A DNA stretch of 64,000 bases from contig CAZWWH010000002.1 of NCBI GenBank assembly GCA_964637365.1, forward strand, positions 11,528 through 75,527, given 5' to 3'. Below the pieces are notes generated by a model, which was not told the DNA's origin, did no database searches, and was given only the letters and a program-made list of their open reading frames with translations. This document shows, piece by piece, positions 3 through 56,720 of the stretch. This DNA is from an uncultured Peptococcaceae bacterium. Its GTDB lineage: Bacteria; Bacillota; Dehalobacteriia; UBA7702. How positions within the stretch are numbered: position 1 is the stretch's first letter; each line of letters opens with the position of its first letter. A program made the translations under genes and the position numbers.

Positions 3-2219
3 TTGTCCTATACCTCCACTACAGTTCGGGATATAAAGGCTGCCGCTTGGGTGCTGGACAACGGTGCCAACCTTGGTGTGGTTCGCAATTACATTAATCG
101 CGCCTTTACACCGGAACAGCAGGACTTATTAAATGTTCTGATGGCAAATTGTCATGTGGAAAAAATTCGCGGTAAAAAAATTTTATTTTCTCAGGGAGAA
201 ACAGCACAATTTGTAGGGGAATTGGCATCACTCACCGGTAAGTTGCGTGATTTCCATATAGTAGATGCGGTTTTTACCGTTGTTCGAATGGGAAACCGTA
301 TTTATATTGTTTCCCGCAGCAGTTCTGAACAAATCAACGTGCGAGAGGTTTTGAAGTTTTATGGTGGTATGGGACACGATCATGCCTGTTCCGCCACGAT
401 TCGTGATGCAGATAGCATTTCCATTGATGCTGTCATTGATAAAATCCGTTCGGAATTATTGGAGTCCATTGCTCCACCTCTGATGGTAAAGGATATCATG
501 ACCACGCCGGTAAAAACTATCGACGCGCACACCACCATTCAGGAAGTTGAAGAATACCTGATTCGGTATGGACATTCAGGCTATCCTGTGATGGAGGAGG
601 GGAAACTCATCGGTATTATTTCCCGTCGCGATGTGGAAAAAGCCATTTATCATGGCTTTGGAAAAGTTCCGGTAAAAGGGTATATGTCTCATCATGTTAT
701 GACCATTTCCGAAGATATTCCTGTGGAAGAAGCACGCACCATGATGTTGGAACAGAATGTTGGTCGTTTTCCTGTTGTACGGGGCGAAGAATTGGTGGGG
801 ATTATTTCCCGTACAGACCTCCTTCAGCTTCTGTATGGGGAAAAGGTCACGACACGTCACAAAACAACCTATGAGCCTTCTGAAATTGCCGTGGATACCA
901 GCAATATGCTGTTAAAATTAAAGAACTCTTTACCGGAAAATACATATCGTATTTTGGGAGAAATCGCCTCTCTGGCGGATCGAGAAGGGTATCGTGTTTT
1001 TTTAGTAGGGGGACTCGTCCGTGACATGATGCTGGAGACGTCTTCTTCGGATTTGGATATTGTCGTAGAAGGGGATGGGATTACTTTTGCCCGTTTGGTA
1101 TCGGAGCAATACCACGGTCATCTTACGGCATATGAAAAATTCGGAACCTCCAATGTGATGATTGAAGGATTTTTAAAATTGGATATAGCCTCAGCACGTA
1201 CAGAGTTTTACGAATACCCCGCAGCGCTACCACAAGTGGAGAACAGTACCCTGCGTCAGGACTTGTATCGTCGAGACTTTACCATTAACGCCATGGCCAT
1301 ATCTTTGAATTTTTCTACCATTGGCCAGCTTGTTGATTATTATAATGGTAGGGAAGACTTGCTGAATAAAAGAATTAGAGTTCTTCATAACCTCAGTTTT
1401 GTGGAGGATCCTACCAGGATCATGCGGGCCATCCGCTTTGCCATTCGTTACGGCTTCCAGTTGGAAGAAGAAACGGAAATGTTTGCCAAAAAGGCCATTG
1501 CTGACGGCGTGTTTGAGAAACTCTCTTATCGTCGTATTTGGCAGGAAGTGATGATTTCTTTGAAAGAGGATGATCCCTACACAATATTGGAGCAATTCAA
1601 TGAATTTGGTTTATGGGATTATATTTTTCCGGGCCATCCTTTTGACTCTTCATTGAAGTCCACCAGCGAATTTTTGGAGAATCACGTTTCATTTTTAAAA
1701 TATCTGAAAACAAAGCCCAGCGTTCCATTGATTTATTTTTTGCTCTTGGTTTATGATATGACCAGAGATGAGCTGGATGAATTCTTTAAAAAAATTGAAG
1801 GTCGGCGTCATTATAAGGACAGCGCCTACTATGTCAATCGGGCCAAAGGCTACTTTTTTGATGAAGTGCCGACTTTGGATATTGTGGATTGGTATAAGAC
1901 TTTTTCAGAACAGAATCCAGAAATTATGATTGTTCTGATGCTAAAAGCTGATAAGAACCAAAGGAAAATTATTAATAATGCTGCTATGCGTTATTTTCGT
2001 TATCAGTTAAAAACCAATCGCCACGACCTTAAAGAATTGGTGGGGAAAAAACGAAAGATTTTGCAGGAAATTATTGAGGATCTGATCCGTGAAAAAACTT
2101 CCGGTCGTTTAAGTACAAAAGAAGAGGAATTGGACTATGTAAGGTCGAATCTAAAAATTGGCAAATATCACGATGATGATGATGCAGCGACGAAAGGGGA
2201 ATGGGATGCTGAACCTTGA
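3..2219 (+). CDS. CBS-domain-containing tRNA nucleotidyltransferase / polyA-polymerase family protein (5' partial at window edge)
   Basis: ORF runs from the window start, so the N-terminus is truncated. Tandem CBS-pair motifs (residues ~150-280). PolyA-polymerase head-domain motif GGLVRDMML...DLDIVVEGD. tRNA-NT C-terminal HD-like region. Confidence 0.6.
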   Translation: MSYTSTTVRDIKAAAWVLDNGANLGVVRNYINRAFTPEQQDLLNVLMANCHVEKIRGKKILFSQGETAQFVGELASLTGKLRDFHIVDAVFTVVRMGNRIYIVSRSSSEQINVREVLKFYGGMGHDHACSATIRDADSISIDAVIDKIRSELLESIAPPLMVKDIMTTPVKTIDAHTTIQEVEEYLIRYGHSGYPVMEEGKLIGIISRRDVEKAIYHGFGKVPVKGYMSHHVMTISEDIPVEEARTMMLEQNVGRFPVVRGEELVGIISRTDLLQLLYGEKVTTRHKTTYEPSEIAVDTSNMLLKLKNSLPENTYRILGEIASLADREGYRVFLVGGLVRDMMLETSSSDLDIVVEGDGITFARLVSEQYHGHLTAYEKFGTSNVMIEGFLKLDIASARTEFYEYPAALPQVENSTLRQDLYRRDFTINAMAISLNFSTIGQLVDYYNGREDLLNKRIRVLHNLSFVEDPTRIMRAIRFAIRYGFQLEEETEMFAKKAIADGVFEKLSYRRIWQEVMISLKEDDPYTILEQFNEFGLWDYIFPGHPFDSSLKSTSEFLENHVSFLKYLKTKPSVPLIYFLLLVYDMTRDELDEFFKKIEGRRHYKDSAYYVNRAKGYFFDEVPTLDIVDWYKTFSEQNPEIMIVLMLKADKNQRKIINNAAMRYFRYQLKTNRHDLKELVGKKRKILQEIIEDLIREKTSGRLSTKEEELDYVRSNLKIGKYHDDDDAATKGEWDAEP

Positions 2220-2871
2220 TATAACAAGAATACTTTTAACGATTCCAGCCTTAATCATTGCTTTAACGCTGCACGAGCTGTCCCACGGTTGGGTGGCTTA
2301 CCGCTTGGGTGATACTACTGCCAAGAGCCAAGGGCGTTTGAGCTTGAATCCACTGAAGCATATCGATCCTATTGGCGCATTGTTTTTGCTAATCGTGGGA
2401 TTTGGTTGGGCAAAACCTGTGCCGGTAAATCCCTACGCTTTTAAAAATAAAGACAAGGGTATGGCTTTGGTAGCCCTGGCGGGGCCTATTTCTAATTTTA
2501 TTATGGCCCTATTGGGTGGCATTGGCCTGATGATAACCTACCATTTTTTTGAAAATGCTGTTTACCAAGGCAGTGCCTCCATGGTGCCTTATTATCTCAC
2601 CTATTTCTGGATGTATTTCATTCAAATTAATGTGGTATTAATGGTATTCAATCTGATTCCAATCCCTCCTTTGGATGGCTCCAGAGTGGTTCGAGCCTTT
2701 TTATCCTTTGACTGGAAGGTTCGTTATGACCGTATTGAGCAATTCGGTATGTTTATTATGATGGCAATGTGTTTGCCTATTTTTGGTGGAACCTCCATCA
2801 TCAGTTTTATTTTAACAAAACCGGTTTCGGCTATTTCTCAATTTATTTATGGCTTGGCCGGAATCATGTAA
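2206..2871 (+). CDS. Site-2 protease (M50 family, SpoIVFB-like) membrane metalloprotease
   Basis: HELSHG zinc motif. NLIPIPPLDGS (LDG) motif. Multiple TM segments. Likely start MLNLDITR overlaps the upstream stop by 14 nt. Confidence 0.6.
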   Translation: MLNLDITRILLTIPALIIALTLHELSHGWVAYRLGDTTAKSQGRLSLNPLKHIDPIGALFLLIVGFGWAKPVPVNPYAFKNKDKGMALVALAGPISNFIMALLGGIGLMITYHFFENAVYQGSASMVPYYLTYFWMYFIQINVVLMVFNLIPIPPLDGSRVVRAFLSFDWKVRYDRIEQFGMFIMMAMCLPIFGGTSIISFILTKPVSAISQFIYGLAGIM

Positions 2872-2881
2872 GGAGACATAT

Positions 2882-3868
2882 ATGGCAAAAGAAACTATTT
2901 TAAGTGGAATGCGCCCCACAGGTAAACTGCATTTGGGGCATCTCAGTGTATTGGAAAATTGGGCAAAACTTCAAGAGGGCAATGAGAATTATTATATGAT
3001 TGCAGATTGGCATACCCTTACCACCGGTTTTAATGATACGAAAATGATTCAGAGCAATATTCGCGACATGGCATTGGATTATATGGCCGCCGGTATTGAC
3101 CCGGAAACTAGCGCTATTTTTATCCAAAGCCGTGTAAAAGAACACGCAGAGCTCCATTTGCTCCTTTCCATGGTAACGCCTTTGAGTTGGCTGGAGCGGG
3201 TGCCCACATACAAAGATCAAATCGCGCAATTCGGCAAAGACGGTAAGGATATTTCTACCTATGGTTTTCTAGGCTATCCTTTGCTGATGGCCGCTGATAT
3301 TCTCGTTTACCGAGCCACAGCAGTTCCCGTAGGGGAAGACCAGCTTCCTCATTTGGAATTTACCCGCGAATTGGTGCGCCGTTTCAATCATCTATATGAT
3401 TGCCAAGTATTTCCGGAACCGAAGGCTCTTTTGGCCAAAATTAAGCTGTTGCCCGGTACTGACAACCGTAAAATGAGCAAAAGTTACGGTAATGACATCC
3501 CCTTGGATGCCGATGATAAATTGATTCTTCAGAGAGTTGGCCAGATGGTGACAGATCCCGCCCGTATCAAGAAAACAGATTTAGGCCATCCAGACGTTTG
3601 CACCGTGTATACTTACCACACCTTCTATAATCAAGAAGAAGCTCCCGATATTGAGGAACGCTGCAAGGCTGGGGAAATCGGCTGCGTGGCCTGTAAAAAA
3701 CGCCTGGCGCAAAAGCTCAGCGAATTTATGGGTCCCATTCGCGAACGCCGCATGGAGTTCTCCGGCAATCCCAAACGTTTGGATGAAATTCTGGAAGCCG
3801 GCTGTGAAAAGGCACGAAAAGCTGCGGCGGAAACTCTGGCTAAAACAAGAGAGGCTATGAAAGTCTGA
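2882..3868 (+). CDS. trpS: Tryptophan--tRNA ligase
   Basis: Class I aaRS HIGH-type motif (TGKLHLGHL) and KMSKS motif. RBS AAGGAGA upstream of the ATG at 2882. Confidence 0.85.
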   Translation: MAKETILSGMRPTGKLHLGHLSVLENWAKLQEGNENYYMIADWHTLTTGFNDTKMIQSNIRDMALDYMAAGIDPETSAIFIQSRVKEHAELHLLLSMVTPLSWLERVPTYKDQIAQFGKDGKDISTYGFLGYPLLMAADILVYRATAVPVGEDQLPHLEFTRELVRRFNHLYDCQVFPEPKALLAKIKLLPGTDNRKMSKSYGNDIPLDADDKLILQRVGQMVTDPARIKKTDLGHPDVCTVYTYHTFYNQEEAPDIEERCKAGEIGCVACKKRLAQKLSEFMGPIRERRMEFSGNPKRLDEILEAGCEKARKAAAETLAKTREAMKV

Positions 3869-6585: not shown

Positions 6586-6955
6586 ACGTATTTTCCAGAC
6601 TGCTTTGGAAATTTTATTGATATATTTTTCCATATTTCATTCATTTGGTTTCTTCCTGAGCACTCTCCAAATCTTACCTTGACCAAATAAGCTTCGATCT
6701 CTTTACCCTATGCTTTTCCCATATCTTATGATAAGCGCCATTGTCGTATTTTCTTGGAATATACGCAATACCTGCTCAGGATGAAATATGATAGGCGCAG
6801 CTTCCGTCCTTTCTGCGCTGCGCCCTCGGTGCTTCCCCGTGGCCAAAAGCCGCGGGGTATGCCCGGATAATTACAAAATGCTATTGTAATTGTACATTTT
6901 GAAATAAATAAGTTTTTGCCGGTAGAAATTAATGCCGGAAATGAAAGGAGATTTT

Positions 6956-8554
6956 ATGAAAAGAATGAAACGATTCATCGCACCCTTACTTGCTCTTGTC
7001 ATGGTAATATCTTTTGCCTTCGGTGTCACAGCCGCCGAAATCAATGCCGATGATGCCTCTAACAGCTATGTTTATCTAACAATGGAGAAATTTACTTTAG
7101 GGCAGGAATGTATTTTTGCACCTATTGCCATTCCCTGGGAGGAGGGAATGACTGCCGCATCCATTCTCGTCGATAAGCTTGGGGACGACAATTATCAATG
7201 CAGTGGCTCTTTAGACGGTGGTGACCTTTACATTTCAGCAGTAAAAGACCCCGATCAAGGTAGTGTTGATATGCCGAAGGTTATTTATGATGCAGTAATG
7301 GGCAGCCAAAATGTAATCTCTGCCCGTAATGAGAAGGAATGGCTCGGAGAGTTTGATTATTACAATGAAAGTGGCTGGATGTTGACGGTGAATGATGATT
7401 TTATTGGCACAAGCTCTGCTGCTCATACATTACAGCCCGGTGACGTTGTCCGTTGGCAATTTACCGTGTATGGCCTTGGTGCTGATTTGGGTAACAGTAA
7501 CGAATCTTTTGGTGGATATGATAAATTAATTGATGCTGCCAACAAAGATGACCTGGTAAAATCCTTGGCAAATGCTACACAAAAAGATACCAACGCATAT
7601 AAAAATGCCTATTCAGTGTTGGTCAATGCTGCGGCAACCCAGGCAGAGGTTGATACTGCAAAGGCCAATTTGGATGCCAATGCTGATGTTCCTTTGAATC
7701 TTTCTTCTTGTGAAAAACAGCACATTATTTTTACGAATGGGCTTCAGTTAAGTGCTACTGAACTTCAACTTGCACCTAAGGAAACTGAAAAATTAACCGC
7801 CGTGGTAACGCCTGACACGGCTAATTTCTCCGAGGTGGTCTGGAAATCTTCAAGAAAAGCTGTCGCCACTGTTTCGGCTGACGGCACTGTAACCGCAGTC
7901 GGTGAGGGGACGGCTAAAATTACCGCTACTACCAAAGATGGCGGAGCATCTGCTGTTTGTGAGGTTACAGTAAAAAAAGATGATGCCCCGGTAGAGATAA
8001 AACTCCCGTTCTCTGATGTTCAGAAAAAGGATTGGTTTTATACTGATGTTCTTTATGTTTACGAGAATGAAATCATGAATGGTGTCAGTAATACTGTGTT
8101 TGGTCCCAATGACGACTTGACCCGTGGTCAATTTGTTGCTATTTTAGGTCGTTATGCTGGGATTAAAGATAGCTCTAAAGGTTCGCCTGCTTCTAAAACC
8201 TTCGATGATGTGAAAACAACAGAGTACTATGCTTCTCATGTGAAGTGGGCCATAGATCAGGGGATTACTAATGGCGTAAGTGAAAAGAATTTTGCCCCTA
8301 AAGAAAAAATCACTAGAGAACAAATGGCTGCAATGATGTACCGCTACGCAAAGGCGATTGGTGTTACATTACCTGGGGCCGATAGCGACAAGTTTTCTGA
8401 TGACAATAAGATTTCCTCCTATGCTAAGGATGCAGTATATAGCATGAAAGCTGCAGGCATCTTAGGCGGTATGGGGAATAACACTTTTGCGCCTAAGGGT
8501 AATACCACTCGGGCCCAAGCAGCTAAAGTGATTCATGTGTTCATGGAACTGTAA
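6956..8554 (+). CDS. Surface protein: signal peptide + DUF4430 (transcobalamin-like beta domain) + Big_2 + 3x SLH domains
   Basis: Signal peptide MKRMKRFIAPLLALVMVISFAFGVTAA. DUF4430-type motif GEFDYYNESGWMLTVNDD...LQPGDVVRWQFTVYGLGADLG. Big_2 Ig-like segment (7720-7980). Three C-terminal SLH repeats (F.DV..W....I...G...G...F.P....TRAQ). RBS GAAAGGAG. Confidence 0.7.
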   Translation: MKRMKRFIAPLLALVMVISFAFGVTAAEINADDASNSYVYLTMEKFTLGQECIFAPIAIPWEEGMTAASILVDKLGDDNYQCSGSLDGGDLYISAVKDPDQGSVDMPKVIYDAVMGSQNVISARNEKEWLGEFDYYNESGWMLTVNDDFIGTSSAAHTLQPGDVVRWQFTVYGLGADLGNSNESFGGYDKLIDAANKDDLVKSLANATQKDTNAYKNAYSVLVNAAATQAEVDTAKANLDANADVPLNLSSCEKQHIIFTNGLQLSATELQLAPKETEKLTAVVTPDTANFSEVVWKSSRKAVATVSADGTVTAVGEGTAKITATTKDGGASAVCEVTVKKDDAPVEIKLPFSDVQKKDWFYTDVLYVYENEIMNGVSNTVFGPNDDLTRGQFVAILGRYAGIKDSSKGSPASKTFDDVKTTEYYASHVKWAIDQGITNGVSEKNFAPKEKITREQMAAMMYRYAKAIGVTLPGADSDKFSDDNKISSYAKDAVYSMKAAGILGGMGNNTFAPKGNTTRAQAAKVIHVFMEL

Positions 8555-8821: not shown

Positions 8822-9066
8822 TGGCAACTAAAAAAACTTTGTTCCCAAAGAGGAACAAAGCGCTTTTACAATGAAAAACACAAAACCTCTTACGCGGAAG
8901 TTCTTTGTAAATTCATAGGCTGAAATATCCTGACTTACCTTCTACGTTGATACCGCCTTCCCGCATGAACAGTGGCAAATGGTAACAACTCGGGTTTCAC
9001 AGTGGCGCGACCGTTGAGGATTTTCACCTCATTCCTTCTGCACCTATGATTTTTTGATTCAATTAC
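8822..9066 (-). promoter_or_regulatory. Cobalamin riboswitch (orphan; no downstream CDS) with intrinsic terminator
   Basis: Minus-strand core GGAATGAGGTGAAAATCCTCAACGGTCGCGCCACTGTGAAAC, GGGAAGGCGG, and AAGTCAGGATA B12-box-like segment. Terminator GCGCTTTGTTCC-tctttg-GGAACAAAG + T7 (plus 8822-8858). Confidence 0.6.
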
Positions 9067-9231: not shown

Positions 9232-12102
9232 TTATGAGGGGACATCAGGATTTTTGTTAGGGCCACGCTTTTGTTTTTTATGGACAATCGTGGCGGTTAT
9301 GATAATGCCTGCTGCAAGTACAATGACTACAATAGAGCCAATGGCAATCCAACGGTGTTGCTCCCAGAATGATGTTAATTCTTCGGTAACACTATTATTA
9401 CCATGATCTGATTTGGTGTCATCGGTGTCTAACAGTGAACCTGCTTTGGCTCTTTTGGCAATAAAGTAATCACTACAATGCTCAATGATAAATTTCGTTG
9501 CTCCACCTTCGGCTGAAACTTTGTCAATAAATTCGGCCCTCATTTCTTCTGGTACGTAGTAAAAGAGGAGATATTTGCCGTCGGCTAATGATGTCTCCGG
9601 AATTTCAACCAAAGCTGGTCCTGGCATTTCACCTTCATGCATGAAGTGGATGATAAAAGGATCATCCGCTAGCTTACGGATGTTATCTTCGTTTTCACAA
9701 TCTTCTTTGCCAAAATAAATTTGCATATTAAAGTCCATGGGATTTTTGATGTCAGTGCCATTGAACGTAATGACGTAAGATTCCCCATTCTCAGTGGTAC
9801 CATCAAGCACCAAATTGATATTTTTTCCCTTAATTTCTTCAAATACTGATTTGGGTACTATGCCATTAGAAAAGTCGGCGCTGGTATACATGCGCCTTTT
9901 GCCGGAAACTTTCCTTTGAGAGAGAATATAGTCGCCTCCACGGTTTGCTTCGAACGTGGCTTGCATATTTTTGAGTGTTACTCCTACTTTTTCAAAGTCC
10001 TTTTTGGCTGCATTGTAGTAGTACATGGAGTATTTGCTTCCCGTTAAATCGACACTAATGGTGACGGTTGCCTTACCGGGGAATTCACCTTGGTGGGGGA
10101 AGTTCAGATAATAGGCGTCGGAAACAAAATCTCTAATTTCTTGTCCGTTGGCGGGAGTTGTCAGGATTCGGGCATCAAAATCCATGGGATTACTAATTTC
10201 TTTGCCTTTAAACGTGATGGTATATGCGTATTTATTATCGCACACACCTGTAATGGTATATTCCACATCTTTTCCGGAGATTAGTTCGAAAACCTCTTTG
10301 ATGACAATATTCTTTTTCAGGCCTTCGATAATTTTGCGGGCCAATAGTAAATCATCACTATGTTCCAGACTTTTTTGCTCTTTTTCTGAAAGCTTTAAAT
10401 AGCGCTGATAAAGAGCGTCTACCATGTTTTCATCGCTAAGTCTTATATTAATGGGATTGATAGATGCGGCAATATCTGCGTCCAATTTTTTTGCCGCATC
10501 GCTTATCGGATCGTCAGGATTATCCGAGGGATCGTTAATTTTGCTCAATTCTTTGATCTCGTCCAAAAGAATTTGCAGTTTACCGCGGTTGCTGATTTTT
10601 GACTTGTCGCTGCTGTTTAAGAGATTGTATTTTTGAGCGGTATCATAAATACTTTTAATATCTTCTTTCGTGGCGGTTTCCGGTAACTGCTCAATACTTT
10701 TGATGATGCTGTTAATTGTTTCTTCGGAACTGTTCGCTTCTTCTCTGAGATCGAAGAGGGGACGGAATCCATTGACAAAGCGGTAATATGCAACTAAGGC
10801 ATATCTTGCCTGGTCTGTTGCTATATGATTGCTTTCTCCAGCTGTTGCGTTGGAGCTGCCGTCTTTAGAGTAGGAATGAATAAAACCACCGTCTTTGCTG
10901 TTATAGTAGGCCAACAAGCCATCTAAAACAGTTTTTCCATTGTCAGTGATGAATCTTTGATCGCTAAGAGGATCGATCTGTAAGGAGCACAATGCCACCA
11001 GAACTTGAGCAGTGCTTTCTGCGTTGGGTACAGAAATGCTACCAAAGCCACCATCGTCTAGCTGCATTGCGGAAAGACGCGCCAATGCTTCGTCAACAAT
11101 GGTCTTGATCGTTTTCCCATTGGAATATACGGTAGTGGAGTCATAATAGGGAGCCAATGCCTGGAGTACCAAAGCAGTAATATCTGTATCACTGGAAGAA
11201 CTCGATAGAGCAAAACCGCCATCAGATAGTTGCTTAGATATCAAATATTCCAGAATCGCTTCTCTGGTTGTCGTAGCGTTTTCTGGAACCTCATATCGTT
11301 CGGAATCCAATGCGATTAAACCCCATGCCGCGCCATTAATACCTTGTTTCCACATGGGAGTCATGATACTCTGATAGATTCCGTCAGAAACTAAGTTTAC
11401 AGCGCTGCCATTTTTATCTTTCCCGAAGGATTTTGCATCTCTGCCCAAAGCGTTCAATGCCAAAATCGGACGGTGATAGTCGGTAGCTACGCGGTCACTC
11501 AGCCATCCTTTGGTTTGATAGGATTTGGTAACATAGGACTCAAGAGCCGTTAAGTAAGCTTCCGTGTCATCGGGATAACCAAATCTTGCAATGCCAAATG
11601 CCAGCCAATCGCAATCTGTGGTTCCGACACCAGCCAATGAACTTTCATTTAAGGCATAAAAGTTTTCCTGCTTTGACCAGTCAATCGTATTTTTAATGGC
11701 ATTTTCTAAATCATCGCTCAGATTGCGCACCGTACGTAGAGTGCCCGATAATTCCAATGATCCCTCTTCAACTGAACGATTATCGCCTTCCACAGTGGTG
11801 CTTTCAGATGATACGACACTGTGATCGATAATATTGTTGTAACCAGACAAAAATGTACGGAGCTGGAGTGATGTTACGCCTGCGCTATAAATATAGGCTT
11901 GGGAAGTACGTCCTGCCAGTTCGTCATAGCCCACATCCCAAATAAAATGTCCCCTTTGTGTCATGATTTGTTGCAGCGATTGGGCAGTAGTTGTGTCTTG
12001 GGTTTCTTCTTGATTGGATGATTCGTCATTTTTATCTCCACATCCCGTGAAAAAGAGACATAGCGCAAGACACAATACAACAATCAACGAGTGTTTTCTC
12101 AT
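9232..12102 (-). CDS. Large surface lipoprotein: alpha/alpha-toroid (prenyltransferase/terpene-cyclase-like) repeats + two tandem beta-domain repeats + C-terminal TM anchor
   Basis: Lipobox LFFTGCGD. Repeated Q/K.LsDGGF motifs (ISKQLSDGGFALS, AMQLDDGGFGS, YNSKDGGFIHS) typical of PF00432/SQHop-cyclase toroid repeats. Two ~140-aa internal repeats sharing ITF.G..I.NPMDF. C-terminal hydrophobic helix followed by KKQKRGP. RBS AGAGGGAG. Riboswitch directly upstream. Confidence 0.65.
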   Translation of the reverse strand: MRKHSLIVVLCLALCLFFTGCGDKNDESSNQEETQDTTTAQSLQQIMTQRGHFIWDVGYDELAGRTSQAYIYSAGVTSLQLRTFLSGYNNIIDHSVVSSESTTVEGDNRSVEEGSLELSGTLRTVRNLSDDLENAIKNTIDWSKQENFYALNESSLAGVGTTDCDWLAFGIARFGYPDDTEAYLTALESYVTKSYQTKGWLSDRVATDYHRPILALNALGRDAKSFGKDKNGSAVNLVSDGIYQSIMTPMWKQGINGAAWGLIALDSERYEVPENATTTREAILEYLISKQLSDGGFALSSSSSDTDITALVLQALAPYYDSTTVYSNGKTIKTIVDEALARLSAMQLDDGGFGSISVPNAESTAQVLVALCSLQIDPLSDQRFITDNGKTVLDGLLAYYNSKDGGFIHSYSKDGSSNATAGESNHIATDQARYALVAYYRFVNGFRPLFDLREEANSSEETINSIIKSIEQLPETATKEDIKSIYDTAQKYNLLNSSDKSKISNRGKLQILLDEIKELSKINDPSDNPDDPISDAAKKLDADIAASINPINIRLSDENMVDALYQRYLKLSEKEQKSLEHSDDLLLARKIIEGLKKNIVIKEVFELISGKDVEYTITGVCDNKYAYTITFKGKEISNPMDFDARILTTPANGQEIRDFVSDAYYLNFPHQGEFPGKATVTISVDLTGSKYSMYYYNAAKKDFEKVGVTLKNMQATFEANRGGDYILSQRKVSGKRRMYTSADFSNGIVPKSVFEEIKGKNINLVLDGTTENGESYVITFNGTDIKNPMDFNMQIYFGKEDCENEDNIRKLADDPFIIHFMHEGEMPGPALVEIPETSLADGKYLLFYYVPEEMRAEFIDKVSAEGGATKFIIEHCSDYFIAKRAKAGSLLDTDDTKSDHGNNSVTEELTSFWEQHRWIAIGSIVVIVLAAGIIITATIVHKKQKRGPNKNPDVPS

Positions 12103-12214: not shown

Positions 12215-12476
12215 TATAAATATAAAAGGGTATGGTAAAAAACCATACCCTTTCGCAATCGAATAGAATTCCAGTGATTCCAAATTTGAATACCTAAATT
12301 TTACAAATCTAGCAAATTCGAATCAAAGATACACCAGATTAACCTTTCTTCAGAAGGCATGGTAAGGTCAACCAAATGTTTTCTGGCTCATGCTAAAACG
12401 CAATCACAGTGGCCGGACCGCTGAGGAATCGCACCTCATTACCATTTTGATTACCTGTTACAATATCAAATTATCT
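12215..12476 (-). promoter_or_regulatory. Cobalamin riboswitch with intrinsic terminator (controls the 956-aa lipoprotein gene)
   Basis: Minus-strand core GGTAATGAGGTGCGATTCCTCAGCGGTCCGGCCACTGTGATTGCG. B12-box-like GAGCCAGAAAAC. Terminator AAGGGTATGGT-ttttt-ACCATACCCTT + TTTTAT (plus 12221-12260). Confidence 0.65.
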
Positions 12477-12482
12477 TAAAAT

Positions 12483-12511
12483 ATTATAATAATACTTGTA
12501 TAAAAAGTCAA
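12483..12511 (-). promoter_or_regulatory. Sigma70 promoter (TTGACT-17-TATAAT) for riboswitch c
   Basis: Near-consensus hexamers with a 17-nt spacer on the minus strand. Confidence 0.5.
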
Positions 12512-12604: not shown

Positions 12605-13351
12605 TTAAAGAGTATCTTCCATCCAACTCCCGCCTGGCAGATCTCTGCCTAAATCACAGGTATAATTCCATTCAATCACGTCGCCGGCCTGGACTTGATA
12701 ACGGCTGCAGCCATAATTGGGATACCAACTATTAACACAATACATCCAACCGCTCAAATCGCCACAATCAAATTCATATAAATTATTGATGCCTTCGATA
12801 TATGTGGATCCATACATTGGCGTCCAACTATATTCCATATGGATTTTATTATTCTTAGTTTCGCGAAGAAGGATATCAAAGACAGATTCTCCTTCATAGA
12901 ATGTTACGGTTCTGCGAGAAAGAATTACGCCATCGGAGGGGACAAGGCCTTTTTTGTTAGGGTCTAAATCCTCCATGTTGTCAAGAATGGTGGAGCATTT
13001 AATTGATAATGTACACTTAAGGGATTTCGATTTATCGATTTTTTGGTTTTCAGTATCAACAGGTTTGGGCTTTCCTTCAGGAATCGGGTCCGTGTTGTAT
13101 TTGTCCTTCTGGGAATCAGCATCATAGTTGGTGCTGCTTTCAGCCTTTGAGTATTTGTCATAATCGGTGCTGCTTTCATCAACGTCATCGACGTCAATAT
13201 AGCCATCATCATCTGCTTCTGGCTGGGTTTCTGTTGCCGCAACTTCCTTTTCATTTTTGTCTGCGGATTTATCATCTCCGCAAGCGGTGAGCATTAATCC
13301 CAAACTCAGCATCATAATGAGCAGTAGCATGAATATACTTTTTCGCTTCAT
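12605..13351 (-). CDS. Acidic lipoprotein with C-terminal DUF4430 (transcobalamin-like beta) domain
   Basis: Lipobox LMLTACGDD. Long D/E/S-rich low-complexity linker. C-terminal DUF4430-type motif GDLSGWMYCVNSWYPNYGCSRYQVQAGDVIEWNYTCDLGRDLPG. RBS AAAGGAGGAG before the ATG at 13351. Confidence 0.65.
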   Translation of the reverse strand: MKRKSIFMLLLIMMLSLGLMLTACGDDKSADKNEKEVAATETQPEADDDGYIDVDDVDESSTDYDKYSKAESSTNYDADSQKDKYNTDPIPEGKPKPVDTENQKIDKSKSLKCTLSIKCSTILDNMEDLDPNKKGLVPSDGVILSRRTVTFYEGESVFDILLRETKNNKIHMEYSWTPMYGSTYIEGINNLYEFDCGDLSGWMYCVNSWYPNYGCSRYQVQAGDVIEWNYTCDLGRDLPGGSWMEDTL

Positions 13352-13889
13352 TTTCTGACTCCTCCTTTTATTTTTGCCGTTTCTTATAAAAAAACACAGT
13401 CCTTTCGGTATCTGTGCCAAATGGTCACAGGCACAGAGTAATCACATTTGACATAAAATCAAATGTTTGATATCACCTTGTGCCGATCAGTGACGTCCGT
13501 ATTTCTTTATGATTTAATTTTAACCATTCAGGTCAAAAATGTCAATGGCGAGTGATTGCTATCTCGTAGAAAATTAGCTTTGGGTGATAACAAATTGGAA
13601 TCACCCGCGCGTTGACAAAAAACGGAAATATGCTATTCTTGTCTCATTGAAAGGGACGAACGTATATATTTAAGGTGCCATTATTGTTTCATACTGTGAT
13701 AATGCCGATATCTCAGTATGAAATGGCGCCGAATGATATTTAATAAGGAGGGTCGAGGTAATTTATTGATTTCTTTTAATTGGCGCGCCGAGATTAAGGA
13801 AGTCGTTGCCACATGGATTTATGAGATGTGGCGAGTTTTGTGTTTAGCAGTAAAAGCACCGGCTATGATATTAAGAAAGGTATTATATT

Positions 13890-15158
13890 ATGAAATTAAA
13901 AAGAGTTTTTTGTTGCATTGTCATGATCGGGGCAATGCTGATTTTTGGTTCTTTGGCTGCAATGGCTGCCAACATGGAATCCCCCGTTGAAAAGTTCAAG
14001 GATATTGATACAAAAGCATGGTATATTGATGATGTGGAATATGTTTATGAAAACGGTATTATGAATGGGATGTCCGATACCATGTTTGGGCCAAATCTAG
14101 CGGTGACCCGAGGCCAGTTTGTGACTATGTTGGGACGTCTTGTAGAGATTGATGATTCCAGTTTGGAATCACCCCAAAATACTATTTTTAGTGATGTAAA
14201 ACCGACGTCTTATTATGCATCCCATATTGCGTGGGCTACCGAGTACGGTATTGTCAATGGTATGTCCAGTACAACCTTTGCTCCGGAACAAAAAGTAACC
14301 CGAGAACAAATGGCTACCATGATGGCACGTTTTTCCAAGGTATTCCAAATCTATATTCCTACCAAAGCAGATACCGCCTTTGCTGATGATGCTGCGATCA
14401 GTAAGTATGCGAAGGAAGCGGTATACGGCTTAAAAAATATCGGAATCCTTGATGGTGTTGGCAAAAATATTTTTGACCCCAAGGGGGCTACCACCCGTGC
14501 TGCCGCTGCCAAAGTGATGCACTATTATATGGAATATGAACCTGCTGATACCGCAGTCGTTTCTATTGAAAAATTCACATTGGGTCAGGGGTATATTTTA
14601 GAACCCACGGTTGTTCCTCTTAATAATGAAGCTACGGCTGATAGTGTTCTTCGTGCCGCGGCCAAGGAAGTTGGTATTGATTTGAAGTTCCATGAAAAAT
14701 CTGGTTATCTTACTTTTGTAAAAGATGAGTGCAATGCTCCTCTGAAGATACCTGATTTTATTGCTGATGAGATGGCAAAAGACGAAGTGACGGTTGATAA
14801 TCGTGCAGATGACGCATGGCTTGGTGAATATGATTATACTGCTCAAGCCGGTTGGCTGTATTGGCATAATAATGCCACGGCTTCTACTACTGCTAATCAG
14901 TGTGCCGTCAGCGATGGCGATGTGGTACGTTTCCAATTTTCCATTAGCGGATGGGGTGCTGACTTGGGACGCAGTGATGCTTGGACCGTTGCCTATCGTG
15001 AGTCTGCTAATAAGGATGAATTGATGAAAGCAGTTGCCTGGGCAAATGATACCCAAAGCGAAGCATACGCCAATGCACTGAAAGTGCTCACGAATATCGA
15101 AAGTAGTCAAGAAGCGGTTGACGCGGCCCTAGCTGCCATGCCCTTACTTGCAGATTAA
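13890..15158 (+). CDS. Surface protein: signal peptide + 3x SLH + C-terminal DUF4430 domain
   Basis: Signal peptide with AMAAN cleavage site. Three SLH repeats. DUF4430-type motif GEYDYTAQAGWLYWHNN...VSDGDVVRFQFSISGWGADLG. Paralogous to the C-terminal part of the DUF4430 region in the 6956 gene. Confidence 0.7.
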   Translation: MKLKRVFCCIVMIGAMLIFGSLAAMAANMESPVEKFKDIDTKAWYIDDVEYVYENGIMNGMSDTMFGPNLAVTRGQFVTMLGRLVEIDDSSLESPQNTIFSDVKPTSYYASHIAWATEYGIVNGMSSTTFAPEQKVTREQMATMMARFSKVFQIYIPTKADTAFADDAAISKYAKEAVYGLKNIGILDGVGKNIFDPKGATTRAAAAKVMHYYMEYEPADTAVVSIEKFTLGQGYILEPTVVPLNNEATADSVLRAAAKEVGIDLKFHEKSGYLTFVKDECNAPLKIPDFIADEMAKDEVTVDNRADDAWLGEYDYTAQAGWLYWHNNATASTTANQCAVSDGDVVRFQFSISGWGADLGRSDAWTVAYRESANKDELMKAVAWANDTQSEAYANALKVLTNIESSQEAVDAALAAMPLLAD

Positions 15159-15722: not shown

Positions 15723-16910
15723 TTATGGATCCATCATACCGTATTTTTTTTTGACACGGTCTAACTTTTCTATCATTGGTTTTGAGAGAATCCAAAGAAA
15801 GAAAAAGGTGGCGACACCATGAACTGCATCAACGGGAATACCTGAAAGATATATGGCCAATGCCCCAGTTTTTTCCGTATTTGTTGTTAGAACTGTCCAT
15901 GTGTTTAATAGCAGCCCATAAATTACTTGTGCGCAGAAATAACCGAAAAAGCAAAGTGGAAGCCGTTTCTTAGAAAGCCAGCCTTTTTTGAATAACACCC
16001 CGGCCAAAAAGCCAATGATACCAAAGGCAAACATTTGCCACGGCGTCCAAGGGCCTTGACCAAAGAAAAAGTTCGAAACAAAAGCCGTCATCGCACCGCA
16101 GAGAAATCCCGCCTCAGCACCCAAACAAACACCGGAAATGGCAACAATTGCCCAAATTGGTTTTACATAGGGAAACATAAAGAAAGCTGCCCGTCCTAAG
16201 ATGGCGATTCCCACCATAACAGCGATGACTACCAGCTCTCTAGCTTCAGGCTTGCGCTGTTCAAAGATCATGAAGAAAGGGATCATCGTTTCAATGATAA
16301 TCATCAAACTGATAAAGTAGTATTGACGGTCATTCATAAAGAGGATGCCAAAAGCAATGGTAGCGGGGATAACCACTAGAATAAGGAGTGCAGCCATAGC
16401 CAAACGCTTCTTAACCCGGCGTATTAGAAGCACCATGAAAGCTACCAATAACGCTACGACCATAGCGATACACCCCTGTCCCATGACAAAGGTTGCTTTT
16501 GGATCTACCTGAGTTTTTATGACATGGGAAACATAAAAGTATGTGATAAAAACGAATACTACAGCTAAAATGGAACTGAAAAAGGTCCAGATGGTATTAT
16601 CACTATTTTTTGTAGCTTTGTTCTTGTTAAAAAGCATGGCCAGGCCAAAGGCCATGGTAATGGTGGTGGCCAATCCCATAATTCTAATGACTGAGATAAG
16701 GGATTTCGCTGTTTCCGGAATTGCTTTTGCAATATCGGATTTATAGAACTTAGTTATAAAATTATAGAGACTGAAGGTAATGGTCTGGTTATCCGCCGTT
16801 ACAGTAATAAAGGGCATTGCTACGCAGACCAGAGCCACGATCAAGGCTGTGCGGGCGATTTCCTTTATGGTATGATTTTCATTTATTTTGTCTGTAAGTT
16901 CTGCTTGCAT
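15723..16910 (-). CDS. ECF-transporter S-component-like polytopic membrane protein, paralog 2 (~11 TM)
   Basis: About 11 predicted TM helices. First 295 codons are nucleotide-identical to the upstream paralog. C-terminal ~100 aa diverge. Last gene of the riboswitch-controlled ECF operon. Confidence 0.55.
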   Translation of the reverse strand: MQAELTDKINENHTIKEIARTALIVALVCVAMPFITVTADNQTITFSLYNFITKFYKSDIAKAIPETAKSLISVIRIMGLATTITMAFGLAMLFNKNKATKNSDNTIWTFFSSILAVVFVFITYFYVSHVIKTQVDPKATFVMGQGCIAMVVALLVAFMVLLIRRVKKRLAMAALLILVVIPATIAFGILFMNDRQYYFISLMIIIETMIPFFMIFEQRKPEARELVVIAVMVGIAILGRAAFFMFPYVKPIWAIVAISGVCLGAEAGFLCGAMTAFVSNFFFGQGPWTPWQMFAFGIIGFLAGVLFKKGWLSKKRLPLCFFGYFCAQVIYGLLLNTWTVLTTNTEKTGALAIYLSGIPVDAVHGVATFFFLWILSKPMIEKLDRVKKKYGMMDP

Positions 16911-16930
16911 AATTCCACGACATCCTCATT
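16027..16930 (-). repeat. Copy B of a ~0.9 kb 100%-identical tandem direct repeat (gene-conversion tract)
   Basis: Identical to 17255-18158, including 20 nt upstream of the start codon. Confidence 0.8.
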
Positions 16931-16944
16931 TATATATTAAAATA

Positions 16945-18138
16945 TTATGATTCCATCATACCGTATTTCTTTTTGATGCGATCTAATTTTTCTATCATTG
17001 GTTTTGAGAGAACCCATAGAAAAAAGAAGGTGGAAATTCCGTAAACCATGTTGACGGGAAAGCCTGAAATATAATAGGCTAAGGGACCTGTGGTGCTAGT
17101 ATCAAAAGCTAAAGTGAAAATTGTACAGGTATCCATAATGAGCCCATAGACAATTAATGCACTAAAAAAGCCAAAGATGCAAAGTGGAAGCCGCTTCTTA
17201 GAAAGCCAGCCTTTTTTAAAGAATATGCCTGCCAAGAAGCCAATAAGCCCTAATGCAAACATTTGCCACGGCGTCCAAGGGCCTTGACCAAAGAAAAAGT
17301 TCGAAACAAAAGCCGTCATCGCACCGCAGAGAAATCCCGCCTCAGCACCCAAACAAACACCGGAAATGGCAACAATTGCCCAAATTGGTTTTACATAGGG
17401 AAACATAAAGAAAGCTGCCCGTCCTAAGATGGCGATTCCCACCATAACAGCGATGACTACCAGCTCTCTAGCTTCAGGCTTGCGCTGTTCAAAGATCATG
17501 AAGAAAGGGATCATCGTTTCAATGATAATCATCAAACTGATAAAGTAGTATTGACGGTCATTCATAAAGAGGATGCCAAAAGCAATGGTAGCGGGGATAA
17601 CCACTAGAATAAGGAGTGCAGCCATAGCCAAACGCTTCTTAACCCGGCGTATTAGAAGCACCATGAAAGCTACCAATAACGCTACGACCATAGCGATACA
17701 CCCCTGTCCCATGACAAAGGTTGCTTTTGGATCTACCTGAGTTTTTATGACATGGGAAACATAAAAGTATGTGATAAAAACGAATACTACAGCTAAAATG
17801 GAACTGAAAAAGGTCCAGATGGTATTATCACTATTTTTTGTAGCTTTGTTCTTGTTAAAAAGCATGGCCAGGCCAAAGGCCATGGTAATGGTGGTGGCCA
17901 ATCCCATAATTCTAATGACTGAGATAAGGGATTTCGCTGTTTCCGGAATTGCTTTTGCAATATCGGATTTATAGAACTTAGTTATAAAATTATAGAGACT
18001 GAAGGTAATGGTCTGGTTATCCGCCGTTACAGTAATAAAGGGCATTGCTACGCAGACCAGAGCCACGATCAAGGCTGTGCGGGCGATTTCCTTTATGGTA
18101 TGATTTTCATTTATTTTGTCTGTAAATTCTGCTTGCAT
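16945..18138 (-). CDS. ECF-transporter S-component-like polytopic membrane protein, paralog 1 (~11 TM)
   Basis: Same architecture as paralog 2. Start overlaps the ecfA 3' end by 28 nt, implying translational coupling. The C-terminal half (ARELVVIAVMVGIAILGRAAF..., GQGPWTPWQ) resembles ECF S-components. Confidence 0.55.
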   Translation of the reverse strand: MQAEFTDKINENHTIKEIARTALIVALVCVAMPFITVTADNQTITFSLYNFITKFYKSDIAKAIPETAKSLISVIRIMGLATTITMAFGLAMLFNKNKATKNSDNTIWTFFSSILAVVFVFITYFYVSHVIKTQVDPKATFVMGQGCIAMVVALLVAFMVLLIRRVKKRLAMAALLILVVIPATIAFGILFMNDRQYYFISLMIIIETMIPFFMIFEQRKPEARELVVIAVMVGIAILGRAAFFMFPYVKPIWAIVAISGVCLGAEAGFLCGAMTAFVSNFFFGQGPWTPWQMFALGLIGFLAGIFFKKGWLSKKRLPLCIFGFFSALIVYGLIMDTCTIFTLAFDTSTTGPLAYYISGFPVNMVYGISTFFFLWVLSKPMIEKLDRIKKKYGMMES

Positions 18139-18158
18139 AATTCCACGACATCCTCATT
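17255..18158 (-). repeat. Copy A of the ~0.9 kb 100%-identical tandem direct repeat
   Basis: Identical to 16027-16930. Its upstream 20 nt lie inside the ecfA coding 3' end. Confidence 0.8.
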
Positions 18159-19790
18159 ATTAACTGCATTGGTAAACACATGCCTCGATAGCCGGTTGGC
18201 AGATGTTGTATAAAAGCTATTGCCGGAGAAAAATCGGTTTGGCGTATCGGTGGTAACAATATCGCCATCAAAAAACATAGAGCAGCTGTCACCATAGCGG
18301 GCACAAAACTCAATGTCATGGGATACCATCACTACAGTGACTCCTTGATTGATAAGCTTTTTCAGAATCTCTGCAAGTTTGATTTTAAAGTAATTATCTA
18401 AGCCTTTGGTAGGTTCATCCAGTAATAGAATTTTGGGTTCCAGAAGGAGGATTTTTGCCAAAGCCGCCCTTTGTTGTTCCCCGCCGCTGATATCATATGG
18501 ATGCATTTGCAATAAATCAGTAATTTCCACCAACTCTGCGACGCGGCGAATTTGTTCTGCTTGTTCTTCCTTGGGAATTTTTTTATCTCTCATCATTTCC
18601 CAAAGATCCAGTTCCACTGTTTTTTTCACAAAAAGCGATTGAGGATCCTGAGGAAGCACAGCCAGGTTGCCTACAAATAATTCCTTGTTGGAATATTTTT
18701 TAATTTCTTTCCCATTGATAAGGACTTTTCCTCGATATGGACGCAAAATGCCGCTCATAATTTTCAAAGTAGTGCTTTTGCCTGTGCCATTGCCGCCAAC
18801 AATGCAAAACAAACTAGCCTTAGGAATATCAACGGAAACACCTTTGACGATATCCTTACCTTCCTTTTCGTAGCGGAACCAAACTTCCTTTAAGCGAATC
18901 ACAGGGTCGCTTTTCTTTAATTCTTGATGGTGGTCAATATTTCGATATTTGATTTCCTGATTCTGAAATAGCTCAGAAATCCAGTTGCGTCCCTCTCTTA
19001 CTGTCAATGGACATTCCAGCAGATTGTCAACAGCCGCATAAATCTGCATAGGGGAGGGCATGGCTACAAACATATCATTATCTTCTTGTTTCAATTTGGT
19101 GCCGACATTTCTTGGCGTGTCGTCCGCAATGACTTTGCCTTTTTCCATCACCACAACTCGGTCAGCATAAGGAACGACGTCTTCCAAACGGTGTTCAATG
19201 ATGATGACTGTAGTGCCCACTTCCTGGTTAATTTTCCGAATAGTTGCAAGAAAATCTGCGGCGGCGATGGGATCCAACTGGGAGGTTGGTTCATCTAGTA
19301 GAAGAACGGACGGCTGCATTGCCATAATGGATGCAAGATTCAGTAGTTGCTTCTGACCACCGGAGAGCTCTGTTACATTTTTCATGAACCATGTTTGGAT
19401 TCCAAAATAGCTTGCCATTTCTGCTACTCTCAGACGAATGGTGTGGTTGTCAGCCCCTAAGCTCTCCAATCCAAAAGCTAATTCATGCCAAACTTTATCG
19501 GTGACTATTTGGTTGTCAGGGTTTTGTAAAACAAAACCGATTTGGGAGGATTGTGCGCGAAAGCTAACATCCTCCAGAGATTTACCATAAAACAAAATTT
19601 CCCCGCTTCTAGTGCCGTGGGGGGCCATCACTGTTTTTAGCTGGCGCATCAGGGTACTTTTGCCGCACCCTGATTTTCCGCAAAGTGCAATAAATTCACC
19701 TTGCTCTACTTTTAAATTGACGTGGTCTAACGCTTTTTTTTCTTGTTCTGGATATGAAAACGTCAGATCTTTGATTTCATAACATGCCAT
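18111..19790 (-). CDS. ECF transporter fused duplicated ATPase (EcfA-EcfA')
   Basis: Two ABC ATPase domains: Walker A GKSGCGKST and GGNGTGKST, signatures LSGGQKQ and ISGGEQQR. RBS GGAGG. Confidence 0.8.
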   Translation of the reverse strand: MACYEIKDLTFSYPEQEKKALDHVNLKVEQGEFIALCGKSGCGKSTLMRQLKTVMAPHGTRSGEILFYGKSLEDVSFRAQSSQIGFVLQNPDNQIVTDKVWHELAFGLESLGADNHTIRLRVAEMASYFGIQTWFMKNVTELSGGQKQLLNLASIMAMQPSVLLLDEPTSQLDPIAAADFLATIRKINQEVGTTVIIIEHRLEDVVPYADRVVVMEKGKVIADDTPRNVGTKLKQEDNDMFVAMPSPMQIYAAVDNLLECPLTVREGRNWISELFQNQEIKYRNIDHHQELKKSDPVIRLKEVWFRYEKEGKDIVKGVSVDIPKASLFCIVGGNGTGKSTTLKIMSGILRPYRGKVLINGKEIKKYSNKELFVGNLAVLPQDPQSLFVKKTVELDLWEMMRDKKIPKEEQAEQIRRVAELVEITDLLQMHPYDISGGEQQRAALAKILLLEPKILLLDEPTKGLDNYFKIKLAEILKKLINQGVTVVMVSHDIEFCARYGDSCSMFFDGDIVTTDTPNRFFSGNSFYTTSANRLSRHVFTNAVNNEDVVELCKQNLQTK

Positions 19791-20653
19791 TTAACATCCT
19801 CCATTATATCAATCACCATGGGGAAAAAACATAGAAAACCGTAGGCAATGTAAACAAATATCGCCAGCGGAGTTGTTTCATTCATGATGAACAATGGGCT
19901 GTACGAGATAAAAATCTTGCCTATTGCCACCATAATAAAGGCGAATAGTGTCGGAATTATAATAGAGGCAATCACAATGTAATCTCTGGTATCGAAACGG
20001 AAAATAGAAAAGCTGGTGCGCCCCGGAAGTCCATAACCTCGGGAACGCATGGAATCCGCTGTTTCAATTCCATTTTCCAATGCCCATGTTGTCATAATTG
20101 ATATGATTTTCATACCGTTTTTGGCCTTTTCAACGAGATTTCCTTCAGTCGCATCCCGACCCATACATTTTTGCCCATTAGAAATTACTTTGATTTGTGC
20201 TTTGAATTTCGGAACAAAACGCAGCACCATGGATAGTACCAAAGAAATTGCGGGAATGACCCGGCCAAAAAGGTAGATAAATTTATCTGATGTCATCACT
20301 GCGTTATAGCAGGAAAACCACATGATAACTGTAACAAACATTGTGGCGGAGGCGAGCCCGTAAATCAATGATTCCAAAGTTAACGGATTACCGCTGGGAA
20401 AATAAGTGAGAATCGTAGCGCCCTGATGATTGAAAAGAGGATTCATGACGGCTGCGAGAATTAAAAGCGGAAGCATTGCGCAGAGATTAAACAGCAGCGC
20501 CTTTTTTCCATTTAGATAAATAGAATAGGTTATAGCAGCCACGAAGGATATTGCGAGAAAAACTGGCTGCATCATAAACATGGTAAATAAAATGACAATA
20601 AGAAAAAATGAAAAATTTATAATTGGATGAAGCGTAGAAAAAGCGTCTTTCAT
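19763..20653 (-). CDS. ECF transporter transmembrane (T) component, CbiQ/EcfT family
   Basis: Polytopic membrane protein with the EcfT signature region ...ADSMRSRGYGLPGRT... RBS GGAGG 8 nt upstream of ATG (MKDAFST...). Overlaps the ecfA start. Confidence 0.7.
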   Translation of the reverse strand: MKDAFSTLHPIINFSFFLIVILFTMFMMQPVFLAISFVAAITYSIYLNGKKALLFNLCAMLPLLILAAVMNPLFNHQGATILTYFPSGNPLTLESLIYGLASATMFVTVIMWFSCYNAVMTSDKFIYLFGRVIPAISLVLSMVLRFVPKFKAQIKVISNGQKCMGRDATEGNLVEKAKNGMKIISIMTTWALENGIETADSMRSRGYGLPGRTSFSIFRFDTRDYIVIASIIIPTLFAFIMVAIGKIFISYSPLFIMNETTPLAIFVYIAYGFLCFFPMVIDIMEDVKWHVMKSKI

Positions 20654-20699
20654 TGGGAAACCTCCAAACAGAATCCTTCCGCAACAAAAAACGCTTGCA

Positions 20700-20882
20700 A
20701 TAAAAAAATCCTGCACCGAGCGCAGGACAATAGGGTACCACTGAAACCTCAGTCACGGAAGGCTTGGTAAATACAGCAAACAAAGTTTTCTGGCTTCCGA
20801 GTTTATGGCTCGTATCACAGTGGCCGGACCGCCGGGGAGTCTAACCCCGTTACCTTATGTCATTGCATTTCGATATTTGCTT
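20700..20882 (-). promoter_or_regulatory. Cobalamin riboswitch with intrinsic terminator controlling the ECF operon
   Basis: Minus-strand core GGTAACGGGGTTAGACTCCCCGGCGGTCCGGCCACTGTGATACG. B12-box-like GAAGCCAGAAAAC. Terminator CCTGCGCTCGGTGCAGG + T7 immediately upstream of the ecfT RBS. Confidence 0.6.
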
Positions 20883-20889
20883 TTTAATA

Positions 20890-20918
20890 ATCATAACAAA
20901 TTTTTTCGCTTTGCACAA
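20890..20918 (-). promoter_or_regulatory. Putative sigma70 promoter with extended -10 (TTGTGC-17-TGtTATGAT)
   Basis: Minus-strand hexamers with 17-nt spacer and a TG extended -10 element. Confidence 0.35.
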
Positions 20919-56507: not shown

Positions 56508-56559
56508 TTTAGACCTTTACAAAATAAAGAATTGTGCTATAATATTAAAAAATGAAAAA

Positions 56560-56720
56560 TTCTTCGGGGACGGTTCGATTCCGTACCGGCGGTAAAGCCC
56601 GCGAGCCTACTTGGTTGATTCGGTGAAATTCCGAAGCCGACAGTAAAGTCTGGATGGAAGAAGAATGGTGATTATTTATCATGCTTTGGGAGCCCCGATA
56701 TCAATCGGGGCTTTTTTGCG
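56560..56720 (+). promoter_or_regulatory. FMN riboswitch (RFN element) with intrinsic terminator
   Basis: TTCTTCGGGGACGG...CCGTACCGGCGGTAAAGCCCG...GATTCGGTGAAATTCCGAAGCCGACAGTAAAGTCTGGATGGAAGAAGAATG. Terminator GGGAGCCCCGAT-atcaa-TCGGGGCTTTTTT. Confidence 0.85.

Follow-up and report, generated by a model that had tools for sequence, protein, structure and literature searches.

Tandem long-form CbrT-like S-component genes with a near-identical 5' part in a predicted corrinoid transporter operon of an uncultured Peptococcaceae bacterium

Gene conversion between bacterial paralogs is known, for example, from tufA/tufB of Salmonella and from the rRNA operons. Among transporters of the energy-coupling factor (ECF) type, the described systems closest to the locus analysed here come from Lactobacillus delbrueckii. 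ECF-CbrT (Protein Data Bank, PDB, entry 6FNP) is a transporter of vitamin B12 and cobinamide (PMC5997447). Its S component, CbrT, is itself promiscuous toward ligands; it consists of 182 amino acids (aa) with six transmembrane (TM) helices, and the general ECF module that it uses also serves seven other S components. FolT1 and FolT2 are two S paralogs of the same vitamin class, which use a single ECF module, docking on it with the AxxxA motif and helices 1 and 3; they are 93% identical throughout, and the 12 differences between them avoid the binding site (PMC4820897). EcfT docks helices 1 and 3 and the AxxxA motif of S components (PMC4820897; PMC11109136), and ligand contacts in FolT are made by helices 5 and 6 (PMC4820897). 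The present analysis concerns a stretch of 64,000 nucleotides (nt) from an uncultured Peptococcaceae bacterium, called the window below, in which two adjacent genes of the minus strand, copy B and copy A, code for membrane proteins of 397 and 395 aa resembling S components.

The two genes are nearly identical over their 5' three quarters and differ in their 3' parts. The explanation that we prefer, and to which we assign a probability of about 0.6, is that they are anciently diverged tandem paralogs of a long-form CbrT-like family, mostly homogenised by gene conversion, in a corrinoid ECF importer. This is a case of a known kind (gene conversion between paralogs, duplicated S components like FolT1/FolT2) in a long-form family that is uncharacterised. 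With conversion of the tufA/tufB and rRNA type the pair has in common a sharp-edged tract, phylogenetic incongruence and islands of different ages; in contrast to tufA/tufB, conversion stops before the likely specificity segment, and the tract carries the coding end of the upstream gene. The likeness to FolT1/FolT2 would lie in two S paralogs of one vitamin class that share an ECF module through the same docking elements. Unlike FolT1/FolT2, however, A and B are mosaic: three quarters of their length is identical, whereas TM5, loop L5 and TM6 are only ~55% identical. The C-terminal alignment, the S-component fold, a His at the position of residue 364 (in copy A) and the cobalamin context are common to CbrT and the window proteins, but the latter have ~395 aa and ~12 TM helices, their identity to CbrT is low, and their operon has its own T and A-A' genes and two S copies.

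Conversion that halts at a functional segment is a textbook phenomenon, of which the S pair is a good example and not a surprise. Less ordinary are the 12-TM long form and the abundance of riboswitches and DUF4430 surface proteins at the locus. In anaerobic communities, cross-feeding is shaped by selectivity for cobamides, and corrinoid choice by Gram-positive bacteria is little understood; a pair of S components that differ only in TM5-L5-TM6, with a His/Tyr swap, behind one ECF module would be a natural experiment for mapping the corrinoid site of CbrT-type proteins.

The tandem pair and its mosaic structure

Copy B (18138..16945, minus strand) is proximal to the ATPase gene ecfA, whose 3' end it overlaps by 28 nt; copy A (16910..15723, minus strand) is the distal gene. 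In self-alignment the segments 16027-16930 and 17255-18158, offset by 1228 nt, were identical at 903 of 904 positions (99.9%). The extent of the tract given in the initial annotation (about 904 nt) was thus correct, whereas the 100% identity claimed for it was not. The sole mismatch (16898/18126) falls in codon 5, which specifies Leu in copy A and Phe in copy B, and the proteins are otherwise identical in aa 1-295. The longest perfect run is 871 nt (16027-16897), an outcome with P ~5e-47 if the 90 differences are placed randomly over the 1214 columns. A maximum chi-square scan located the end of the tract exactly at 16026/16027 (chi2 = 275).

At its other end the tract begins 20 nt upstream of the ATG of each S gene. 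In front of copy B these bases belong to the coding 3' end of ecfA, so that the B side of the tract consists of 20 nt of ecfA plus codons 1-295. On the A side the last 15 ecfA codons recur as a non-functional relic, which stands in front of copy A and reaches into it (16930-16886; EcfA residues 545-559 at 100% in tblastn). The inclusion of the 20 upstream nt, already noted in the initial annotation, was confirmed, the version embedded in ecfA being that upstream of the ecfA-proximal copy B, and the relic bears out the proposed origin of the repeated unit at the ecfA-S junction. Because the relic lies in front of A, conversion would have proceeded from B to A. A unique 14-nt junction (16931-16944, minus strand) follows the stop codon of B and leads up to the repeated unit; it is absent downstream of A. 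This junction and the two intact, different 3' ends support the tandem arrangement; all three are unique sequence and are not in doubt.

Past the break the nucleotide identity of the two copies drops to 71%, but it is uneven: 74% in codons 295-310, 96% in codons 311-318, 61% in codons 318-373 and 88% in the tail. The annotated drop past codon ~295 was real, the identity being 71% for the nucleotide sequence overall, 67% for the protein from aa 296 to the end and 61% for the core. The divergent core of A (codons 318-373; 15792..15959, minus strand) comprises TM5, loop L5 and the first half of TM6 as positioned in an AlphaFold2 (AF2) model, and contains His364. That of B (codons 318-375; 17014..17187, minus strand) has a Tyr at this position and a 2-aa insertion in L5. 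As had been claimed, the last three helices of the S core differ between the copies. The identity island GWLSKKRL (15957..15980, minus strand) matches between A and B at 23 of 24 nt, versus 14 of 24 between B and its relative, and its residues (codons 311-318) are derived relative to the sister species. The 3' tail (codon 374 to stop; 15723..15791, minus strand) is read as an older conversion tract. In both the island and the tail, A and B have in common synonymous sites and residues that are derived relative to the sister species, which points to repeated events of different ages.

In pairwise comparison of A and B, dS is 0.005 for codons 1-295. For codons 296 to the end it is 1.35, with dN 0.196 and dN/dS 0.145, which indicates that the 3' divergence is old and has been under purifying selection. 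In the pairwise comparison, the diversifying selection on the C-terminal region that the initial annotation suggested was accordingly rejected. The view that the 3' divergence stems from a recent duplication did not stand either: the core of A is 55% identical to that of B at the protein level, like between-genus pairs of the family (median core identity 47%). The suggested concerted evolution of the 5' part by gene conversion, in contrast, remains the best explanation.

The nearest species, a Ca. Cryptoclostridium obscurum-like organism, has a single S gene, P0002. The core of B is 83% identical to P0002 (84% over the C-terminal 100 aa), whereas the core of A is 50% identical to it and 37-54% identical to 35 other long-form proteins (P0002 left out). 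The 5' parts of A and B, equal to each other, are ~73% identical in nucleotides to the orthologue P0002. This is phylogenetic incongruence of the conversion type: A and B are the same in the 5' part, while in the core B and P0002 share 83% and A and B 55%. An orthologue was identifiable for copy B only. Rapid divergence of A after duplication was considered and rejected; dS is saturated, and the mean identity to the family is 46.5% for the A core and 47.8% for the B core. Judged by these distances, which match between-genus values and are no greater than those of B, the A core is an anciently separated lineage and not a fast-evolving recent copy.

CbrT and 47 of 49 relatives have His at the position of residue 364 (15819-15821 in A; codon 366, 17041-17043, in B). 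Tyr occurs there only in copy B and its orthologue P0002. Four near-invariant residues are altered in B and P0002 (F296L, I298L, L306F and H364Y); A retains all four.

S-component assignment and the operon

The segment aa 224-370 of either S protein exceeds the curated cutoffs of PF12822 (30.7 bits) and PF07155 (26.7 bits), with scores of 38.5 and 35.1 bits for copy A and 34.8 and 31.1 bits for copy B. The only significant sequence match in the PDB was chain A of 6FNP (182 aa), inferred from its size to be CbrT (phmmer E = 5.4e-8, 171 residues). In this alignment aa 222-392 correspond to CbrT residues 8-178, including the C-terminal LDRxKKKxG helix. The C-terminal half of the AF2 model (pLDDT 80) matched RibU, PanT, TmRibU, ThiT, BioY and FolT with a Foldseek probability of 1.00 and TM-scores (target) of 0.54-0.74 to these solved S components. 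Helix 1 carries the small-xxx-small motif A230-V-M-V-G234 in both copies; the family consensus has A230-x-x-x-A234, and so does a sequence patch from a metagenome-assembled genome (MAG) described below. The Pfam scores and the predicted fold thus bear out the annotation of the genes as tandem ECF S-component paralogs, and the match to CbrT together with a cobalamin-riboswitch-like operon leader does the same for the suggested corrinoid link.

The order of elements on the minus strand is riboswitch-like leader, terminator, EcfT-like gene, fused EcfA-EcfA' gene, S copy B and S copy A, the S pair being the last two genes. The leader aptamer (20763..20894) matched RF00174 with 27.0 bits (E = 2.9e-5 to 7.8e-5 in local searches). 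Between it and the T gene lies an intrinsic-terminator-like hairpin with a T-run (20698..20728), a putative expression platform, whose nine-pair stem (GTCCTGCGC..GTGCAGGAT) is followed by TTTTTTT. The EcfT/CbiQ-like T component (19763..20653) has a weak match to TIGR02454 (CbiQ). Its true start is probably the ATG at 20653, which is preceded by GGAGG, although the open reading frame (ORF) list extends to a GTG at 20716; relatives align from residue 20-22 onward. The fused EcfA-EcfA' ATPase (18111..19790) contains two ABC domains (PF00005 twice, E = 1.5e-58) and scored 384.6 bits with TIGR04520 (ECF_ATPase_1; cutoff 315) and 353 bits with TIGR04521 (cutoff 330). The T and A-A' genes directly precede the S pair on its strand, stop and start codons overlapping.

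Taken together, the locus would be a dedicated importer of corrinoids under control of a cobalamin riboswitch, composed of T, fused A-A' and two S components. Repeated gene conversion between the anciently diverged S paralogs, in events of different ages, would have homogenised the ribosome binding site, the N-terminal 6-TM extension and S-core helices 1-3 with the EcfT-docking motif of helix 1. The latest and largest event, of ~0.9 kb and from B into A, would have carried along a piece of the ecfA 3' end. A core of ~170 nt (TM5, loop L5 and TM6, on the side of the ligand pocket) would have escaped homogenisation while purifying selection acted on it in both copies, so that two S subunits, alike in docking surface but not in pocket, would serve one ECF module. 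Both S proteins are presumably made and transport corrinoids. Two pockets on one docking platform can reasonably be inferred, and a difference in corrinoid specificity between A and B is plausible, the sole hint being His364 in A versus Tyr in B.

Related loci and competing explanations

One long-form S gene each was found in seven related loci (L002, L003, L004, L005, L024, L025 and L026), and a comparison of copy number across relatives, as proposed with the initial annotation, therefore gave a single gene throughout. In five of the seven (L003-L005, L024 and L026) the S gene directly follows the T and A-A' genes, in the order seen in the window; the T homologue of L024 has a weak match to PF02361 (CbiQ). 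The L002 contig opens inside the 3' end of ecfA, where adjacency to ecfA is seen and the T gene lies off the contig, and in L025 the S gene stands beside cobalamin biosynthesis and CbiMNQO genes. A riboswitch-like element occupies the same place 5' of the T gene in L003 from Ca. Cryptoclostridium obscurum (adenosylcobalamin riboswitch RF01482, 39.5 bits) and in L004, a Hadza gut MAG (RF00174, 26.8 bits). A scan of a genome collection with an alignment of eight N-terminal sequences returned three loci, all single-copy, and did not return the window's own species. A metagenome scan with a degenerate tandem S-stop/S-start pattern gave 18 matches and no homologue, within the limits of exact-pattern matching. 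Among the available data the tandem S pair is specific to the lineage of the window. In six unrelated metagenome contigs (L006, L008, L013, L014, L016 and L018) the matches to the junction pattern all span 80 nt, and none of the six holds a homologue of the operon proteins; they probably share some other conserved gene junction.

Several observations weigh against the explanation proposed above. None of the seven related loci holds a tandem pair, so that ancient paralogy needs losses, or a paralog elsewhere in those genomes. Database searches found no close relative of the A-type core outside the window species. The leader, here called riboswitch-like, scores below the RF00174 gathering score of 31.5 bits. 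The source is a draft contig; if its assembly is short-read, both copies of the 'perfect' tract could go back to a single consensus in their interior, and a divergent patch in one copy could have been lost. Finally, contig JAXJZP010000197.1 of MAG GCA_036306385.1 (L001) must be considered. It represents the same species, because its flanks are near-identical to the window (1 difference in 1357 nt of ecfA and 5 in ~2400 nt downstream, ~99.8% identity). Between the same flanking neighbours it has a single S gene, in which the 5' end of B (Phe5) is joined to the 3' end of A, the latter identical to that in the window. Moreover, a 200-nt patch of this gene (L001 1969-2166, codons 197-264) has 45 mismatches to both window copies.

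The chimeric gene of L001 could have arisen by unequal crossover across the repeat, or a short-read assembler could have collapsed the repeat. A search with the C-terminal 107 aa of B found no near-identical fragment (best match 63%), which does not decide whether the MAG strain has a B core. The patch (dS 1.5, dN/dS 0.07) is nearer to the family consensus and restores AxxxA in helix 1; it may be an unconverted remnant of the original sequence of A.

The single gene of L001 between the same neighbours, and the fact that the searches found no other record with the tandem, could be taken to mean that the duplication itself was created in assembly, say by chimeric joining of two single-gene strains, and that the genome has one S gene. 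This is very improbable because an assembler cannot invent the B-stop/A-start junction: what comes after the stop codon of B is the unique 14 nt and then the ecfA tail, instead of the region downstream of A. Furthermore, neither ORF is interrupted, and purifying selection acts on the core of each.

Alternatively, the tandem could be real and the perfect interior identity partly made by the assembly, a de Bruijn repeat edge having been written twice and differences removed as bulges. The source is a 207,020-nt contig of an NCBI draft, and the sole mismatch lies so close to the tract edge (33 nt) that k-mers could link it to unique sequence. The alternative 200-nt version of codons 197-264 and the collapsed single gene in the MAG also look as if they came from an unresolved repeat. 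A long-read assembly, however, would not act in this way, and unique sequence makes up the junction and the two 3' ends. Since at least 591 + 95 nt are common to the window and MAG paths, extensive homogenisation would remain even so. We regard this explanation as rather unlikely.

A third alternative dispenses with ancient paralogy: a B-type gene was recently duplicated in tandem, and the distal 3' core was then replaced from a diverged allele or another species. It would account for the single S gene in all seven related loci and for an A core as far from B as from other genera, and L001 provides a precedent in the ~200-nt patch with dS ~1.5 that segregates at the same gene within the species. 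This course of events nevertheless predicts 100% identity outside the replaced patch, whereas the tail is 88% and codons 295-310 are 74% identical, with a 96% island between them. Such zones of intermediate identity need several events of different ages, contrary to a single import. In addition, no donor-like sequence was found in database searches, and recombination with a ~40% diverged donor is mechanistically hard. Duplication followed by replacement is possible but doubtful, and repeated conversion between old paralogs is preferred.

The conversion reading can be extended, tentatively, to a pair of exchangeable 'specificity cassettes'. Conversion would hold the docking half and the N-terminal domain constant, while selection would keep the His364 pocket of A and the Tyr pocket of B for different cobamides or precursors. 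Recombination across the repeat would give the A+B state of the window, the A-only state of the MAG and the B-only state of the sister species. The claudin-like sheet of the N-terminal domain (see below) may receive corrinoid from SLH-anchored DUF4430 binders. Such a hand-over, if true, would be a step not known for ECF transporters.

The N-terminal domain and the surroundings of the operon

The initial annotation described proteins of ~11 TM helices in a 5+6 layout. According to the AF2 model and to comparison with shorter homologues there are instead ~12, arranged 4 + 2 + 6: aa 1-165 with four TM helices and an extracellular beta-sheet, two TM helices common to the short form, and the 6-TM CbrT-like core. 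The homologues fall into two classes, a common short form of ~241 aa and a long form of ~400 aa found in Clostridiales MAGs. The short form (PF20221 DUF6580 plus PF12822; named 'ECF transporter S component' in Clostridium and Paenibacillus) is 60-64% identical to aa 165-395 of copy A and has the same two extra N-terminal TM helices and S core, but it is without the first 165 aa of the window proteins.

The N-terminal domain occurred in only six representatives among 1.84 billion cluster proteins, all of them starts of long forms or fragments. The domain as a separate protein and the proposed fusion of modules therefore gained no support, no free-standing homologue having been found in this set. 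There was no Pfam or NCBIfam match of note. The predicted fold resembles claudin/TARP proteins, with sequence identities of 7-13% to the matches, and for these reasons the idea of the N-terminal half as a second S component likewise found no support. The signature of the first extracellular loop (ECL1) of claudins is W-(G/N)LW-C-C. It is absent here, aa 32-65 (PFITVTADNQTITFSLYNFITKFYKSDIAKAIPE) being without Trp and without Cys.

DUF4430 proteins are encoded around the transporter at 6932-8554 (plus strand), 12605-13420 (minus) and 13890-15158 (plus); two are SLH-anchored and one is lipoprotein-like. DUF4430 is the C-terminal domain of transcobalamins (PMC4350170), and the three neighbours are candidate surface binders of corrinoids. 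DUF4430/SLH neighbours of the operon are also present in L004, L005, L024 and L026. With these proteins, two further cobalamin riboswitches and a likely corrinoid-dependent MttB-type methyltransferase cluster nearby, the surroundings of the operon suit a role in corrinoid capture.

The strongest cobalamin riboswitch in the window (8901-9062, minus strand, 71 bits) lies just after the terminator of a gene for a 956-aa protein, and has a promoter-like site of its own (9102-9074) and a terminator-like hairpin (8861-8836). Downstream of it the minus strand contains no ORF longer than 54 aa, and a transcript reading through would run antisense to the SLH/Big_2/DUF4430 gene (6932-8554) at its 3' end. 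This riboswitch may control an antisense RNA, a small RNA or a small ORF. The 956-aa protein (9232-12102, minus strand), which has no Pfam match, is encoded directly behind another cobalamin riboswitch (12356-12486, 35 bits). Homologues are found in L005, one of them behind a riboswitch (1110-1297, before 1462-3405), and the protein is a conserved, B12-regulated one.

Convergent to copy A there is a gene for a 140-aa protein with the homing-endonuclease-associated repeat PF18780 (15179-15601, plus strand). In L001, too, the S gene is followed by this gene, and a 48%-identical homologue lies near the operon in L005.

Divergent to the operon, the segment 21097-27532 (plus strand) codes for a PAS-domain sigma-54 activator, which is closest to PrdR; behind it come genes for an MttB-family methyltransferase and for MFS and BCCT transporters. 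This is likely a cluster for corrinoid-dependent demethylation of quaternary amines, which would explain a demand for B12. Farther away, a flavin mononucleotide (FMN) riboswitch of 108 bits (56556-56669, plus strand) is located 5' of the ORF 56681-57886.

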